Positions 4,189-58,500 of a DNA stretch of 64,000 bases are shown piece by piece. The DNA is taken from assembly GCF_041886205.1 (NCBI RefSeq), contig NZ_CP169029.1, one strand, 5' to 3'. The translations under genes and the position numbers were made by a program. The notes under the pieces were generated by a model that made no database searches, was not told the DNA's origin, and saw only the letters and a list, made by a program, of their open reading frames with translations. The DNA comes from Escherichia coli (lineage in GTDB: Bacteria; Pseudomonadota; Gammaproteobacteria; Enterobacterales; Enterobacteriaceae). How positions within the stretch are numbered: position 1 is the stretch's first letter; each line of letters opens with the position of its first letter.

Positions 4189-4342
4189 TGCCGGATGCGG
4201 CGCGAACGCCTTATCCGGCCTACAAAACCAGCAATTTCAATACGTTGTAAAACTGTAGGCCTGATAAGACGCGGTAAGCGTCGCATCAGGCATTGAGCAC
4301 CGAATGCCGGATACGGCGTGAACGCCTTTTCCGGCCTACAAC
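4189..4342. repeat. REP/BIME cluster (about three REP units in alternating orientation)
   Basis: Repeated GCCGGATGCGGCG..ACGCCTTATCCGGCCTACAA units and their inverse in the convergent ettA/nadR intergenic region. Confidence 0.65.
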
Positions 4343-17311: not shown

Positions 17312-17515
17312 CATGCCGGATACGGCCTACGGTTCGGCACAGACTTGTAGGCATGATAAGACGCGACAAGCGTCGCATCAGGCATTGTGCGCCAACTGCC
17401 GGATGCGGCGTGAACGCCTTATCCGGCCTACGGTTCGGCACAAACCTGTAGGCATGATAAGACGCGACAAGCGTCGCATCAGGCATTATGCGCCGACTGC
17501 CGGATGCTGCCTACG
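17312..17515. repeat. BIME: two near-identical tandem REP-containing units of about 90 bp
   Basis: Unit CGGCCTACGGTTCGGCACA-ACCTGTAGGCATGATAAGACGCGACAAGCGTCGCATCAGGCATT-TGCGCC-ACTGCCGGATGC occurs twice in tandem between the convergent yjjW and yjjV. Confidence 0.7.
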
Positions 17516-25308: not shown

Positions 25309-25395
25309 GCGAAGGTGGCGGAATTGGTAGACGCGCTAGCTTCAGGTGTTAGTGTCCTTACGGACGTGGGGGTTCAAGTCCCCCCCCTCGCACCA
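25309..25395 (+). tRNA. leuV: tRNA-Leu (anticodon CAG), 87 nt, ends CCA
   Basis: GCGAAGGTGGCGGAATTGGTAGACGCGCTAGCTTCAGGTGTTAGTGTCCTTACGGACGTGGGGGTTCAAGTCCCCCCCCTCGCACCA; type II tRNA with long variable arm. Gene name by operon order. Confidence 0.93.
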
Positions 25396-25423
25396 AAAAC
25401 CACGTTGATATTGCTCGCACTGG

Positions 25424-25510
25424 GCGAAGGTGGCGGAATTGGTAGACGCGCTAGCTTCAGGTGTTAGTGTTCTTACGGACGTGGGGGTTCAAGTCCCCCC
25501 CCTCGCACCA
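25424..25510 (+). tRNA. leuP: tRNA-Leu (anticodon CAG), 87 nt; one-base difference in variable arm (TCTTACGG vs CCTTACGG)
   Basis: Second tandem copy, identical except one variable-arm base. Confidence 0.9.
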
Positions 25511-25544
25511 AACGAGGCGATATCAAAAAAAGTAAGATGACTGT

Positions 25545-25631
25545 GCGAAGGTGGCGGAATTGGTAGACGCGCTAGCTTCAGGTGTTAGTGTCCTTACGGA
25601 CGTGGGGGTTCAAGTCCCCCCCCTCGCACCA
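25545..25631 (+). tRNA. leuQ: tRNA-Leu (anticodon CAG), 87 nt
   Basis: Third tandem copy identical to the first. Confidence 0.9.
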
Positions 25632-47260: not shown

Positions 47261-47299
47261 ATTTAGCGCGGTGCGGATGTGCGCCAACACACCCGCACC

Positions 47300-47376
47300 A
47301 CTCATCACAATCACTATTTTCAAGGAATAGCAGTTATGACTGACACGCATTTTATTGCACAACCGTTCGAAGCAGA
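47300..47376 (-). ncRNA. symR: expected location of the antisense sRNA SymR (antitoxin) overlapping the symE 5' end
   Basis: Placed from established knowledge that SymR is encoded antisense to the symE translation start; exact ends not verifiable from sequence alone. Confidence 0.3.
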
Positions 47377-47723: not shown

Positions 47724-49817
47724 TTATACCAACGCGCTCTCCATCTGTTTTTCAAATGCCTGACGAATTAATCCCATAATGTAAGGAAGTTGTGCGAGGT
47801 CGCTGAAACCAATTTCCACATCACCATTACCCCAGCGCCCAATATTTGTCACATCTTTGGCAATACCTTTCGGATCGACCAGTTCATGAAACTGCATATT
47901 AAGCGACAATCGCAGTCGGCTTTTTTGCGGCACAACATCAACAAAATTCGTTTCAGCTTTAAACGCAATATACAGCTTTAAAACTTCCTGCGTGATCCCT
48001 GCGTCCAGGCGCATAACTTCATCGCGAAGATGATCGAATAACACCCGGCTATGCGAACCATCAGCAAGAAAAGGATAATCACTCAGGCTGTAACTGGTTT
48101 TGTTTTCTGGCTGCCCCCGATAAACAGCTAAAACCTCTTCAGAAAGAGAAGGCGCTTGCCAGACCTGAACCGCGAGATCGGCCAGACGATCGGCTCGGGC
48201 GTGAATGGCGGCTTCATCCCATTTTTCGCACTGTCCAAGACCGATATTCAAATAAAGCGGGCTATGTTTAAAGCCATCTTCAATATCGCGTTTTTCCGCG
48301 AAAGGTCTGTCACTGTAGCGGGAGTTATAGCGCGTTAAAGTGAGATTCCCCAACGTATGTAACAGTTCTTTATGCACACGCTGCCAGTCGCTTCCCAGCT
48401 CTTCACGCCATTTAGCCGACAGATTTTCGTTCTGCGGCATAATGTGCTCAATCGTAAACTCTTCCACGCGCTCTCTGCGTTTATCGTTTTCCAGTCGTCG
48501 TAACCAGTAGCTGCGGCTGCGGAAGTTATAGAGATCGCGCACTTTTAATTCCCGTTTAAATTCATCATCGTTGGGGAAACGACGATATGAAGGCAGGTTC
48601 ATAAAATGTACCTGAATACTTTCCAGATATTTTTCTTTATTAATGACCTTATAAAAAGTGGCAAACGTCTTGTTAAGAGAATTCGTCGGAATCGCACATA
48701 CTGCACGGCGGAAAACATAAGATTCAATTAAACGAATTATGCTCAGGAAATCTTCGTGAGACAAATCGTCATTTTTATAGTCATGATAAAGCGCCAGTAA
48801 GAAAGGATACGCCACATCAACCTTTAACTCGCGCAAATCCTGAAAAGCCGTAGCAAGCGATTTGTCACTTTCTTTTCCCAATGCCATTGCACAGTAATAC
48901 TCCGCGTAGATATGAATATCTTCAACCAGCCGATCTACGCCTTTTTCAGCAACACTCTGGCTGCGGGCATGGAGTTTAAATGCCTCATAGACTTCATCTG
49001 TCCGAGGGATCTCCCCCGTTTTTACCGTCAGATAATGACGCATAAAACTGTCAAAATATTCGCTGTAACCTTGCTGACCAAAGGCGACTTCCATTGGACG
49101 CCAGTGATCTTCATACAACCGGGTTTGATGCTCTGGTTCGAGACCCATCAGAATAAAATTGCGCACCAGATCGGCCTGACTTAACGCCTTACCGGTGGAG
49201 TTCATACTTTCAAAAATCAGTTGCGGATTATCCTGACCACGATTAAGCGCCACATCGACAATTAATAACTTTGCTAACCCTCGACATAAGGGAATCAAGT
49301 CATCCCCGAGTTTGGCAATTTGCTCATCAAAGAAAGTAAAGTTTTCCATTATTCGATGGGAATAGTTTTCTGGCATTGGTCTTTGTTTTATTAACGCCAG
49401 CAAACTGTCTTTATCAGTCTCGGTCAGCAGTAATTTAAAACCTTTCTCGCCGGACTCATAAGGATTGAGCAAATAATAATTACGCAATTTCATTGCCGAA
49501 AAGCCATCAAAAACTTCGTCTTCGCCAAGATGGCGCGATAAAGCCTCAATCAGCAACATTGCGGTCGTCAGCCGCTGCTGACCATCAATGACCAGCAACG
49601 GAGAAATACCAGAAACCTGATACAACCCCTGCTCAATATAAACAACCGAACCGATAAAATGCGCTGATATATCGTCACGCTTTCCGGCACGAATGATGTC
49701 GTCCCAAAGTTGCCGACATTGTTGCCCGGTCCATGAATAGGTGCGTTGATAAATGGGAATAACAAACTGCTGCGAACGTTTTAAAAAATCGAGTAGGCGG
49801 GCTTCTGTAGCTTTCAT
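47724..49817 (-). CDS. DUF262/DUF1524 (GmrSD/BrxU-like) putative type IV restriction endonuclease with an extra C-terminal module
   Basis: 697 aa. N-terminal ParB/DUF262 signatures IPIYQRTYSW and DGQQRLTT; His-Me finger-like segment EHIMPQ...LGNLTLT; about 120-aa C-terminal extension (YIAFKAETNFVDVVPQKSRLRLSLN...). Sits where K-12 has mcrBC. Confidence 0.75.
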   Translation of the reverse strand: MKATEARLLDFLKRSQQFVIPIYQRTYSWTGQQCRQLWDDIIRAGKRDDISAHFIGSVVYIEQGLYQVSGISPLLVIDGQQRLTTAMLLIEALSRHLGEDEVFDGFSAMKLRNYYLLNPYESGEKGFKLLLTETDKDSLLALIKQRPMPENYSHRIMENFTFFDEQIAKLGDDLIPLCRGLAKLLIVDVALNRGQDNPQLIFESMNSTGKALSQADLVRNFILMGLEPEHQTRLYEDHWRPMEVAFGQQGYSEYFDSFMRHYLTVKTGEIPRTDEVYEAFKLHARSQSVAEKGVDRLVEDIHIYAEYYCAMALGKESDKSLATAFQDLRELKVDVAYPFLLALYHDYKNDDLSHEDFLSIIRLIESYVFRRAVCAIPTNSLNKTFATFYKVINKEKYLESIQVHFMNLPSYRRFPNDDEFKRELKVRDLYNFRSRSYWLRRLENDKRRERVEEFTIEHIMPQNENLSAKWREELGSDWQRVHKELLHTLGNLTLTRYNSRYSDRPFAEKRDIEDGFKHSPLYLNIGLGQCEKWDEAAIHARADRLADLAVQVWQAPSLSEEVLAVYRGQPENKTSYSLSDYPFLADGSHSRVLFDHLRDEVMRLDAGITQEVLKLYIAFKAETNFVDVVPQKSRLRLSLNMQFHELVDPKGIAKDVTNIGRWGNGDVEIGFSDLAQLPYIMGLIRQAFEKQMESALV

Positions 49818-50254: not shown

Positions 50255-51667
50255 ATGACGCGTTATCAACATCTGGCGACTCTACTTGCCGAGCGGATTG
50301 AGCAAGGGCTGTATCGTCACGGGGAGAAATTGCCGTCGGTGCGCAGCTTAAGTCAGGAGCACGGCGTCAGCATCAGCACCGTGCAACAGGCGTATCAGAC
50401 GCTGGAAACGATGAGGCTCATCACTCCGCAGCCGCGTTCGGGTTATTTTGTCGCACAACGTAAAGCCCAGCCGCCTGTACCGCCGATGACGCGTCCGGTG
50501 CAGCGCCCGGTGGAAATTACCCAGTGGGATCAGGTGCTGGATATGCTGGAGGCGCATAGCGACAGTTCCATTGTTCCGTTAAGCAAAAGCACGCCGGATG
50601 TCGAAACGCCCAGCCTGAAACCGCTGTGGCGGGAGCTAAGCCGGGTGGTGCAGCATAATCTACAAACCGTTCTCGGTTATGACTTGTTAGCCGGTCAGCG
50701 AGTGTTGCGAGAGCAGATTGCCCGCCTGATGCTCGACAGCGGCTCGGTGGTCACCGCCGATGACATCATCATCACCAGCGGCTGCCATAACTCGATGTCG
50801 CTGGCGTTAATGGCGGTGTGTAAACCGGGCGATATTGTCGCGGTCGAATCCCCCTGTTATTACGGTTCGATGCAGATGCTGCGCGGCATGGGCGTGAAAG
50901 TGATTGAAATCCCAACCGATCCAGAAACTGGCATCAGCGTCGAAGCGCTGGAACTGGCGCTGGAACAGTGGCCGATTAAAGGCATCATTCTGGTGCCAAA
51001 CTGTAATAATCCGCTGGGATTTATTATGCCGGACGCACGCAAACGGGCCGTTCTCTCTCTCGCTCAGCGTCATGATATTGTGATTTTTGAAGATGATGTC
51101 TACGGCGAACTGGCAACGGAGTATCCGCGCCCGCGGACCATCCATTCATGGGATATCGACGGGCGAGTGTTGTTGTGCAGCTCGTTCAGTAAAAGTATTG
51201 CTCCAGGCCTGCGCGTGGGTTGGGTCGCACCGGGGCGTTATCACGATAAACTGCTGCATATGAAATACGCCATCAGCAGCTTTAATGTGCCGTCCACGCA
51301 AATGGCGGCGGCAACGTTTGTGCTGGAAGGTCACTATCATCGCCATATCCGGCGGATGCGGCAGACTTATCAGCGCAATCTGGCGCTTTATACCTGCTGG
51401 ATACGGGAATATTTTCCCTGCGAAATCTGTATTACGCGCCCGAAAGGCGGATTTTTACTGTGGATCGAATTGCCTGAACAGGTCGATATGGTTTGCGTTG
51501 CGCGGCAGCTGTGCCGCATGAAAATCCAGGTGGCGGCAGGCTCGATTTTCTCGGCTTCCGGCAAATATCGTAATTGTCTGCGCATCAACTGCGCTTTGCC
51601 GCTCAGCGAAACCTATCGCGAAGCACTGAAGCAAATTGGCGAAGCCGTGTATCGGGCAATGGAATGA
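50255..51667 (+). CDS. yjiR: MocR-like regulator YjiR (GntR HTH fused to PLP aminotransferase fold)
   Basis: 470-aa ORF with N-terminal HTH (LPSVRSLSQEHGVSISTVQQAYQTLE) and aminotransferase-like C-terminal domain. Confidence 0.88.
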   Translation: MTRYQHLATLLAERIEQGLYRHGEKLPSVRSLSQEHGVSISTVQQAYQTLETMRLITPQPRSGYFVAQRKAQPPVPPMTRPVQRPVEITQWDQVLDMLEAHSDSSIVPLSKSTPDVETPSLKPLWRELSRVVQHNLQTVLGYDLLAGQRVLREQIARLMLDSGSVVTADDIIITSGCHNSMSLALMAVCKPGDIVAVESPCYYGSMQMLRGMGVKVIEIPTDPETGISVEALELALEQWPIKGIILVPNCNNPLGFIMPDARKRAVLSLAQRHDIVIFEDDVYGELATEYPRPRTIHSWDIDGRVLLCSSFSKSIAPGLRVGWVAPGRYHDKLLHMKYAISSFNVPSTQMAAATFVLEGHYHRHIRRMRQTYQRNLALYTCWIREYFPCEICITRPKGGFLLWIELPEQVDMVCVARQLCRMKIQVAAGSIFSASGKYRNCLRINCALPLSETYREALKQIGEAVYRAME

Positions 51668-51783
51668 ATTCGAAATAGTGGCGAAGCACCTGATTTACTC
51701 TCAAGAATCGCCTGTAACTCGTTTTATCTTTATAGCGACATCGCCACGTTCCGGCATGGCTTAGGCAAAGTGCGCTTTGTTCA

Positions 51784-51885
51784 TGCCGGATGCCATGTGA
51801 ACGCCTTACCAGGTCTACAAAATCTTTAAAGTTCAATATATTTAATGGGTTATGTAGACCTGATAAGCGTAGCGCATCAGGCTGC
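51784..51885. repeat. REP element pair (BIME) downstream of yjiR
   Basis: GCCGGATGCCATGTGAACGCCTTACCAGGTCTACAA and inverted copy GTAGACCTGATAAGCGTAGCGCATCAGGC. Confidence 0.6.
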
Positions 51886-51909
51886 TTTGCGTTTGTCATC
51901 AGTCTCTGA

Positions 51910-52866
51910 TTAGTACTCGATCCATGGATCGCGCTTGCTTTCAGGCAAGGGCTGATCTAATGCCTGCATTTGCTCTGCCGAAAGTCCGGTATATCGTTGT
52001 ATCCATTCAGGATCGGCCCCATTCTGCAACAACAATCGGAGGAGGCTCCGTTCCCCTTCTACTTTCCCTTCTTTCCTCCCCCTCTCCCTTCCCAACAGCC
52101 ATCCATCATTATGAATTCGCTCTGCAATTGTCATTATTCGCTCCCTGTGGTGTGGCATTCGCCTGGTAAGTTCGCTGATAAACGCCTTAAAACGCGCTTC
52201 ATCGCCAGTCAGTAAAATGTAATTTAACAGCGCAGTTATCTGGCTGTCATTAGCACACTCTGTAACCAGTAATACTACCAGTTGATCGATAAGCTCCATC
52301 AGATCGCGCTGGCGAATATGCTTTTGGATCAACTCCAACAGAGCGACTCTGCGATGCTGCACAATCACGTCGTCTGGCACGACAGTGATATCCACCAGCG
52401 GGAACGCGGCGGTATAAAGCTTCCGTGCGGTAGTCGGGTCGGCAAATTCGTCCAGCCAGCACAGGGACCAGGGATAAGGACTACGGCTACCGTGATAAAA
52501 CAGCATCGGGATGACCAGCGGTAGCGGCCGGCGTTTATCATGCTCAATATGGCGCTGCATCACCGCCATGGAATATCGCATCAGGCGAAAGGCCATATGA
52601 ATATCCTCACGGCTCTGATGTTCAATCACTACGTAAATATAACCACCACCTTCACGGGTCTTTACCGACCACAGAATATCGGAGTGTAGCGCCCGCAATT
52701 TTTCATCGACAAAGCTGGCGGATTCCAGTTTTAAACTGTCGAGATCGCACTGTTCACGTAAATCTTTAGGTAAGTGGATCTCCATAAAATCCCGCGCGGT
52801 GTCAGGGTGCATGAGAAAGGACTTAAATAATGCGTCATGCGGCGTGCTGGTCGTGAAGTTTGTCAT
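51910..52866 (-). CDS. rpnD: Rpn-family (YhgA-like, PD-(D/E)xK) recombination-promoting nuclease, apparently full length
   Basis: 318-aa [36 protein letters not shown]... at the yjiP/yjiQ position; the K-12 locus is split, from memory. Confidence 0.75.
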
Positions 52867-53332
52867 GGCGATCCGTCACCTGTAGATAAGATGGCCCGAC
52901 TGTAGCGACTAACAAAACCATTCTCACCCGGCAATTTCTCGTTCCCCGAGGTGCTTTCCAGGCTATTTTTGTTCCTCTGCAAACGATACATTTTTCCGGA
53001 AACAGGCTCGCGTTTTACATTTCCTGTACCCGGCAGATATTCCCCTTTCCACCGCGCTCTTTTGATTAACCGCAAATTTTAATTACACTTAAGGTGTATA
53101 TTTTCTATGCAACCCATCAATTAAAGAGGTGTAATGTGCTGATGACTATTTGTAATCGTTATACATTCTGACCTGGAGTCAGAAGGTATTTCTCTGTCTG
53201 TGTGTTCACAGGCAGTGTGGTTGATTACATGAAATTCAGTACATTTGTCCTTCTCGCCTGCCCTTCGTCATTACCGACGGTATTGAATTTCGTTTTCCCC
53301 GTTGGGGTTCTCCGGACAAGGAGTTGTTTGTT

Positions 53333-57930: not shown

Positions 57931-58181
57931 AAGAGTTTTTATTTTTATTTCACTCCACAGTCGGCGTCATACAAACCCGCAAAGCGTTGCAGGCAGCGGG
58001 CATGACTTTTCGCGTCAGCGATATTCCCCGTGATTTACGCGGCGGCTGCGGGTTATGCATTTGGCTGACCTGTCAGCCCGGCGAGGAAATACAATGGGTG
58101 ATCCCTGGGCAGACCGAAGCGATATATTGCCAGCAGGGCAGCGACTGGCTGTGCGTGGTGCATTACGATGCAGAAGCGTGA
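57927..58181 (+). CDS. small DUF3343-like protein translationally coupled to yjiL
   Basis: 84-aa ORF MKEFLFLFHSTVGVIQTRKALQAAGMTFRVSDIPRDLRGGCGLCIWL... whose ATG overlaps the yjiL stop (ATGA). Confidence 0.6.
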
Positions 58182-58500
58182 ACCAGGTAATAAGACCTTT
58201 AAATATAACGCCCGGATAATTGGCTGCGTATAATCCTGCATGAAGGAAGTTGTATAAACTATCTCGCTTGCCGTGAAATATTTCCCGTCCACAAAATGAG
58301 CGATTTTTGATAGCACCTTGCTATTGCGCGTCTAAAATACAATAAACATTGTATTATACTTAAAACATAATTATGCATAGAGAAATAAAATGATTACCGG
58401 GTGTGGTAATGATAAAGATAAGTTTCAGTGTGAAGATTATCTTTACCCCCCATGATTATTTTAGATTTAGAAGAACATTTCACAATTCAAGGATAAAAAT

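Follow-up and report, generated by a model that had tools for sequence, protein, structure and literature searches.

An uninterrupted copy of rpnD in Escherichia coli, probably encoding a DNA-cutting toxin with a small antidote protein of its own in the same reading frame

The family has been described from the five rpn genes of Escherichia coli K-12. According to Zhong et al. 2023 (PMC10400941), each of the five contains a promoter and a site of translation initiation inside the gene, which give rise to RpnS, a small protein identical to the C-terminal tail. Internal transcription starts were located in all rpn genes from dRNA-seq, and all five K-12 RpnS proteins, RpnD-S included, were detected by tagging in the same study. 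There RpnS is presented as the cognate antitoxin of RpnL, the toxic full-length nuclease; antitoxin action and repeat specificity were demonstrated for RpnA, RpnB and RpnC. The E. coli RpnS tails are described in that text as carrying four-amino-acid repeats, which begin 8-20 residues after the RpnS methionine and vary in number between strains, the repeat number setting the specificity between the L and S products. The preliminary description of the locus studied here had mentioned internal small-protein or antitoxin functions as a proposal for the Rpn family; an internal small antitoxin protein is already documented for it (Zhong et al. 2023, PMC10400941).

The full-length proteins have been characterised as nucleases and toxins. 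RpnA shows DNA endonuclease activity in vitro (PMC5350276). K-12 RpnD, after repair of its broken gene ("yjiPc", Kingston et al. 2015/2017), is toxic and induces SOS, and deletion of 45 residues from its tail removes most of the activity (PMC4498929, PMC5350276).

The DNA analysed here, referred to as the window, is a stretch of 64,000 nucleotides from E. coli. The ORF list and its translation place an ORF of 957 nt (318 codons and a stop) at positions 51910-52866 on the minus strand, the strand not having been given earlier. This is an ordinary uninterrupted copy of E. coli rpnD, which probably encodes a DNA-cutting toxin together with a small antidote protein of its own in the same reading frame. 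The full-length product (RpnD-L, 318 aa) is a putative toxic PD-(D/E)xK DNA endonuclease. It matches Pfam PF04754 (Transposase_31/YhgA-like) with an E value of 1.7e-84 and 282.9 bits against a cut-off of 21. The match runs over residues 8-210 (positions 52237-52845, minus strand), includes the PD-(D/E)xK core and extends over positions 1-202 of the 203-position profile. A second match, with 165.8 bits against a cut-off of 52.1, is to NCBIfam TIGR01784 ([quoted passage not shown]). These scores, above the curated thresholds, place the protein in the Rpn/YhgA-like family (PF04754, TIGR01784, COG5464). The RpnA equivalog model NCBIfam NF007361 scores 370.3 bits, under its cut-off of 583, and the protein is therefore taken as the RpnD paralogue and not as RpnA.

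Gene order agrees with this assignment. The 1.7 kb around the gene agrees at 100% identity with E. coli strain 6EVA, whose annotation gives the gene as an intact CDS of the Rpn family (WP_000181147.1); in 6EVA, in ME8067 and in MG1655, rpnD lies between yjiR and mdtM. The position between these two genes and the high identity to K-12 rpnD identify the gene as the rpnD orthologue. The single 318-aa ORF with an Rpn N-terminal region, reported in the preliminary description, is thus confirmed by the ORF and by both family profiles, and the proposed Rpn homologue at the yjiP/yjiQ position by the same profiles and the flanking genes. An Arg/Glu/Lys-rich C-terminal tail had also been claimed, and such a segment lies at codons 256-275.

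The names attached to the family might suggest an insertion sequence transposase: the Pfam family is called Transposase_31, and database entries read "ISNCY family transposase" or "putative transposase". Against such a reading, the gene in the window has neither terminal inverted repeats nor direct repeats at its flanks, rpnD keeps the same place between yjiR and mdtM in the sampled strains with an intact locus, and its median copy number is one per genome. Zhong et al. (PMC10400941) likewise reported no evidence of autonomous transposition, and no autonomous transposase with an Rpn fold is known. The transposase reading is extremely improbable and was rejected on the missing flanking repeats, the fixed locus and the median single copy; with no repeats around the gene, the label is a relic of naming. 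In the yjiR-rpnD spacer, downstream of the rpnD stop, lies a pair of REP-like imperfect inverted repeats (51805-51867), which is not a transposon end. Long spurious ORFs cross this repeat, such as one of 98 aa at 51603-51899.

The preliminary description gave the K-12 locus as split and took the copy in the window to be intact, and the DNA alignment bears this out. In K-12, rpnD is broken by a single CAG to TAG change at codon 104, which leaves two ORFs of 103 aa (YjiP) and 190 aa (YjiQ); MG1655 (NC_000913.3) lists it as pseudogene b4584, and the ME8067 record gives it an "internal stop". The window keeps CAG (Gln) at this codon (52555-52557, minus strand). Alignment with K-12 yjiP/yjiQ thus finds the ORF free of the K-12 disruption and confirms it as an Rpn homologue. 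Selection points the same way. Among ten intact alleles, pN/pS is 0.14 for codons 1-244, which indicates purifying selection, and 0.71 for the tail after the repeats, with pS there (about 0.13) similar to that of codons 1-244. Purifying selection across alleles shows that the ORF has not arisen by chance; rpnD is kept in the species, its nuclease domain being conserved while its tail evolves fast.

The data nevertheless do not support the significance that had been implied for the intact state. Among 5,426 complete E. coli genomes searched, rpnD is present in 4,242. With 30-mers counted as matching only via an exact 28-nt word spanning codon 104, CAG was found in 3,445 genomes and TAG in 339. 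Among the matches listed, the TAG genomes were overwhelmingly K-12 laboratory derivatives, for example, MG1655, DH1, J53, MC4100 and NEB Turbo. It had been reported before that most strains encode a complete YjiP (Kingston et al. 2015). Intact rpnD is the norm of the species, and the broken K-12 copy is the exception. The exact protein of the window occurs on 526 contigs in public collections, and the cluster to which it belongs at 90% identity comprises 3,918 sequences. The gene in the window represents the normal state of a characterised gene. K-12 is unsuitable as the reference state for rpnD.

Aligned over the full length, the protein and K-12 RpnA share 54% identity, and the putative catalytic residues were assigned from this alignment. 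D11 (52834-52836), D63 (52678-52680), E82 (52621-52623) and Q84 (52615-52617), all on the minus strand with a codon span of 52615-52836, align with the same-numbered RpnA residues, as does R94 (52585-52587, minus strand). In an alignment of 39 homologues from Escherichia, Citrobacter, Salmonella and Klebsiella, the first four are invariant and R94 is nearly so. The RpnA substitutions D11A, D63A, E82A and Q84K abolished all activity (PMC5350276). RpnD in the window thus carries the catalytic set of the PD-(D/E)xK type, in which a Gln specific to this family replaces the Lys, together with R94.

The full-length AlphaFold2 model, built from the 39-sequence alignment, is of low confidence (mean pLDDT 60, pTM 0.42), and in this model the elements follow the order alpha-beta-beta-beta-alpha-beta (E40-49, E62-70, E76-84, H91-109, E117-125). 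Such a predicted order suits a PD-(D/E)xK core. A Foldseek search of the PDB with the full-length model returned nothing below an E value of 0.2; the weak matches, which included tRNA-splicing and restriction endonucleases, were unusable.

One conserved feature differs in the window. The family motif PDDEI reads PDDVI (codons 164-168, 52363-52377, minus strand), as codon 167 is GTG (Val; 52366-52368, minus strand; E167V) where the family has Glu or Asp. At column 167, every residue aligned from the remaining 38 homologues is E or D, apart from gaps in two rows, and V167 occurs in the window sequence alone among the 39. Among complete genomes, the GTG version was found in 92 and the GAG (Glu) version in 3,058; the window shares PDDVI with ATCC 8739 and B-3008. 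PDDEI is a conserved feature of the family and not a formal criterion of membership, so that the assignment to Rpn stands. The motif is identical in all five K-12 paralogues and belongs to a non-core part of the domain (PMC5350276).

The substitution could mean that an intact ORF encodes an altered nuclease, attenuated or hyperactive, and that the locus is atypical, being, for example, mainly a producer of RpnD-S. The rarity of Val, both among the 39 homologues and as 92 genomes against 3,058, is consistent with this. So is the behaviour of the neighbouring residue in RpnA: D165A, beside the Glu of PDDEI, is hyperactive and 42-fold more toxic (PMC5350276), so that residue 165 strongly modulates activity and an effect of E167V is conceivable. 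However, V167 is fixed in a natural lineage including ATCC 8739 and B-3008, where the ORFs are still intact, and the rest of the N-terminal domain is under purifying selection. A locus altered in this manner is unlikely. A narrower suggestion, to which still less weight is given, is that E167V may tune nuclease activity in the ATCC 8739/6EVA lineage; as this mosaic allele also has a repeat tail of the longest class sampled among the complete genomes, it could then be a distinct variant in both activity and specificity.

Within the same frame lies the putative intragenic antitoxin RpnD-S, a nested ORF of 74 aa and a stop (51910-52134, minus strand) that begins at an internal ATG, codon 245 (Met245; 52132-52134, minus strand). 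This start was assigned by alignment with RpnA Met244, which, according to Zhong et al. (PMC10400941), was proven by mutagenesis to be an internal start. A Shine-Dalgarno (SD) sequence, AGGGAG, identified by its pairing with the anti-SD sequence, is located 6 nt upstream of the ATG (52141-52146, minus strand). With a pairing energy of -7.4 kcal/mol, it ranks first when all 53 start-type codons of rpnD are compared; for the annotated start the value is -3.8. The preliminary description had proposed a search for an internal in-frame start producing a C-terminal small protein, and codon 245 answers to it in frame, in SD strength and in alignment with RpnA.

Met245 is invariant in the 39 homologues, and the ATG lies at nt 733 in all in-frame alleles. 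The internal start and its SD are conserved in 13 of the 13 E. coli alleles examined, with AGGGAG in 11 and AGAGAG in two (CEC08123 and O157:H7). At the level of sequence, then, rpnD has an internal translation start with a ribosome-binding site.

A candidate internal sigma-70 promoter (ATGACA, an 18-nt spacer and TG-n-TAAATT; 52221-52250, minus strand) was found by a consensus scan. It is a weak match about 85 nt upstream of Met245, with a predicted transcription start near 52213, and is identical in K-12. The scan gave 4 sites against 2.7 expected, which is not above chance, and a sliding window of allelic diversity showed only a mild dip near the candidate, at nt 601-660.

The 74-aa tail alone gave no DUF4351 or other family in a Pfam scan. 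Most RpnD homologues (P0001-P0120) carry a precomputed Pfam match to PF27070.1 besides PF04754. This model was absent from both local Pfam scans, that of the full protein and that of the tail, and possibly represents a more recent model for the C-terminal part of Rpn proteins.

The AlphaFold2 model of RpnD-S, also of low confidence (mean pLDDT 66), is all-helical (H3-17, H22-37, H42-49, H53-59). It shows a long kinked first helix (H3-37) and then two short ones, in the order expected from the RpnA-S crystal structure 7TH0, a three-helix bundle that dimerises through its long first helix. The RpnD-S sequence alone matches 7TH0 with an E value of 0.01 over 44 residues. Foldseek with the RpnD-S model found no PDB match with an E value below 3 and did not recover 7TH0. 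Matches of RpnD-S by phmmer to designed ankyrin repeats in the PDB were dismissed as a coincidence of the short motif "LLxxGADP".

A purine-rich tract of four-amino-acid (dodecamer) repeats occupies positions 52039-52101 on the minus strand and begins at residue 12 of RpnD-S, that is, 12 residues after Met245. The DNA alignment gives the window 36 bp more than K-12 rpnD, and since the difference falls in whole four-residue units, the tract has three more units than in K-12. Alleles of 306, 310, 314 and 318 aa differ by whole four-residue units in this tract, and the lengths of homologues also step by 4 aa. The 306-aa alleles (K-12, E2348/69) read YIKG-EQRI; the 310-aa allele (CEC08123) reads WLLG-REEG-EQRI; the 314-aa alleles (O91:H21, B-3008) have four units. 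The units of the 318-aa alleles (the window, O111 and ATCC 25922) end in [V/E]EG-E[R/K]SL, and this class makes up about a third of a spread sample and the largest protein cluster. Similar xxxG repeats are found in homologues from Citrobacter, Salmonella and Klebsiella. Both the starting residue and the whole-unit length steps agree with the hypervariable repeat of Zhong et al. 2023. Tandem Repeats Finder detected no array in rpnD, because the dodecamers have diverged too far from one another in their DNA.

The allele in the window is a mosaic. Its first 488 nt differ from B-3008 (ATCC 8739-type) at one site, and its tail after the repeats differs from O111 and ATCC 25922 also at one site, while the converse comparisons give 11 to 41 differing sites. 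Only 9 complete genomes have alleles at least 99% identical to it.

Inactivation of rpnD is not confined to K-12. In O157:H7-type genomes (279 genomes), the gene is inactivated by a 25-bp tandem duplication, the duplicated unit of which, ATGACGATTGCAGAGCGAATTCATA, falls exactly at the internal start (L007:1501-2458, O157:H7 86-24). RpnD-L is thereby frameshifted, and the second ATG recreates a complete RpnD-S ORF with a weaker SD upstream. Two alleles have sporadic frameshifts near codon 130 (L005:1501-2444 and L006:1501-2438), and one is truncated by IS1.

In the two codon-130 frameshifts and the K-12 stop (L002:6312-7232), which are independent lesions, the RpnD-S ORF is intact and only RpnD-L is lost. 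These three losses fit decay that begins with the toxin, in a sample too small to exceed chance. Altogether, four of the five disrupted alleles spare RpnD-S; as 76% of rpnD lies upstream of the internal start, this proportion matches the chance expectation, and preferential sparing of RpnD-S was rejected. K-12 and O157:H7, both large clonal lineages without RpnD-L, each keep the RpnD-S ORF, and orphan antitoxins could be retained for a reason, the sample again being not above chance.

The gene lies two genes from a reduced immigration control region, at its edge. What remains of the region is symE/symR, an hsdR remnant, a pseudogenised 3'-5' exonuclease and a GmrSD-like ORF; between yjiA and yjiS none of hsdRMS, mcrBC or mrr is annotated, only the hsdR fragment and the pseudogenised exonuclease being left. 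The SymR antitoxin RNA, paired with symE, is found at 47265-47341 on the minus strand (Rfam RF01809, 88 bits). Zhong et al. (PMC10400941) reported rpn genes as enriched near defence genes, and the place of rpnD beside the immigration control region fits this report. PADLOC gave no model matching Rpn.

Several observations concern the surrounding DNA. At 47724-49817 on the minus strand, the window has an uninterrupted 697-aa DUF262/DUF1524 (GmrSD-like) ORF. It matches the PADLOC models Orf5 PDLC02693 (E 1.9e-223, aa 10-553) and PDC-S18 (aa 591-688), as well as type IV restriction and HEC-06 models. On the identical 6EVA sequence, PGAP splits it into a 387-aa DUF1524 CDS and an "incomplete" DUF262 pseudogene; the fused architecture is unusual, and the split is probably an artefact of the annotation. 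Between rpnD and mdtM, upstream of the latter, there is an 11-codon ORF (53136-53171, plus strand) identical to K-12 ytiE (b4823). Between 46774 and 53623 the window and 6EVA do not differ, and up to about 58100 they show a few scattered mismatches. From about 58100 to 59300 (L001 from about 12500 to the end), the two no longer line up without gaps, suggesting that the window differs from the 6EVA record by an indel or by divergent sequence around the genes from yjiL to the pentapeptide-repeat gene. Elsewhere in the window there are two matches to naRNA4, a REP-derived nucleoid-associated RNA (4258-4336 and 17350-17428, minus strand), and three tandem tRNA matches (25309-25628, plus strand), tRNA-Leu in the 6EVA annotation.

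The border position also bears on another view, the earliest put forward for the family, by which rpnD would be mainly a recombination-promoting nuclease whose breaks stimulate RecA-independent replacement of the adjacent variable immigration control region; it would then serve in housekeeping or horizontal transfer and not as a toxin-antitoxin gene for defence. Overexpression of repaired RpnD raised RecA-independent recombination 4.5-4.7-fold (PMC5350276, PMC4498929), the gene borders a hypervariable region, and the allele in the window is itself a recombinant mosaic. However, that effect needed overexpression and came together with toxicity, and deletion of rpnA-D left the basal recombination frequency unchanged (PMC5350276). 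A role in toxin-antitoxin function or defence agrees better with the intragenic antitoxin, the diversification of the repeats and the reported clustering of rpn genes near defence genes. A main role in recombination is considered very unlikely, although the two views are not mutually exclusive. The preliminary description suggested that an intact copy may be active in recombination; the family is now read as a toxin-antitoxin or antiphage one and not as a dedicated recombination enzyme.

The reading preferred here, with a probability of about 0.85, is that rpnD in the window is a functional chromosomal toxin-antitoxin module in a single gene, a "gene within a gene", in which toxic RpnD-L is blocked by RpnD-S, the pairing is set by the repeats and release takes place under infection or stress. 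An intact ORF under purifying selection, the catalytic residues, an internal start with its SD and the variable repeats are what the nucleotide and protein sequences supply to this model. RpnD-L (318 aa) would be a Mg2+-dependent PD-(D/E)xK DNA endonuclease of little sequence specificity which, if unchecked, would damage DNA. A shorter transcript and the strong internal ribosome-binding site would direct initiation at Met245, so as to yield RpnD-S, whose 74 aa are identical to the C-terminal tail of RpnD-L. The long first helix of RpnD-S may then bind the tail of RpnD-L and hold the nuclease inactive as an L2S2 complex, and the number of four-residue repeats in this helix, three more than in K-12, would set the S/L pairing. 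RpnD-L would be freed by a trigger, for example phage infection or stress from alkaline conditions. For the allele in the window, we infer expression, nuclease activity and any phage defence.

The gene is best annotated as intact rpnD, a toxin gene with its antitoxin inside it, in place of a "putative transposase"; beyond this, the correction matters little. The series of alleles, from 306 to 318 aa and beyond, with the K-12 and O157:H7 inactivations, illustrates the published model of repeat diversification. It could also guide the choice of natural RpnD-L/RpnD-S pairs for experiments on specificity.

Three known systems can be compared with the gene in the window. Plasmid RpnP2-LS shares the two-product gene-within-a-gene architecture proposed for RpnD; RpnP2 is plasmid-borne, unlike the chromosomal rpnD, and is likened to it by description and not by sequence. 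According to Zhong et al. (PMC10400941), RpnP2-LS is the one Rpn system for which phage protection has been demonstrated (T-even phages, BASEL #40).

RpnA (YhgA) has D11, D63, E82, Q84 and R94 in common with RpnD of the window at 54% identity, but is its paralogue and not its orthologue. RpnA Met244 and Met245 of the window share the motif MTIAER, and from there the tails are collinear to the end of RpnA. RpnD-S has 74 aa as against 49 aa for RpnA-S, because it contains extra repeat units and a 13-residue C-terminal extension absent from RpnA.

The nearest relative is K-12 rpnD (yjiP/yjiQ, b4584). It occupies the same locus between yjiR and mdtM, is about 93% identical in nucleotides and has the same catalytic residues and the same internal ATG with SD at nt 733; the DNA alignment of the two is collinear, with a mean column identity of 95% when the flanks are included. 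Unlike the gene in the window, it has PDDEI where the window has PDDVI, and its tail has three fewer four-residue units (306 vs 318 aa), which makes its RpnD-S 62 aa long, and differs in the last ~12 residues (ERERYSWLKS). In K-12 the TAG at codon 104 has made a pseudogene of rpnD, and the RpnD-S ORF within it is intact.
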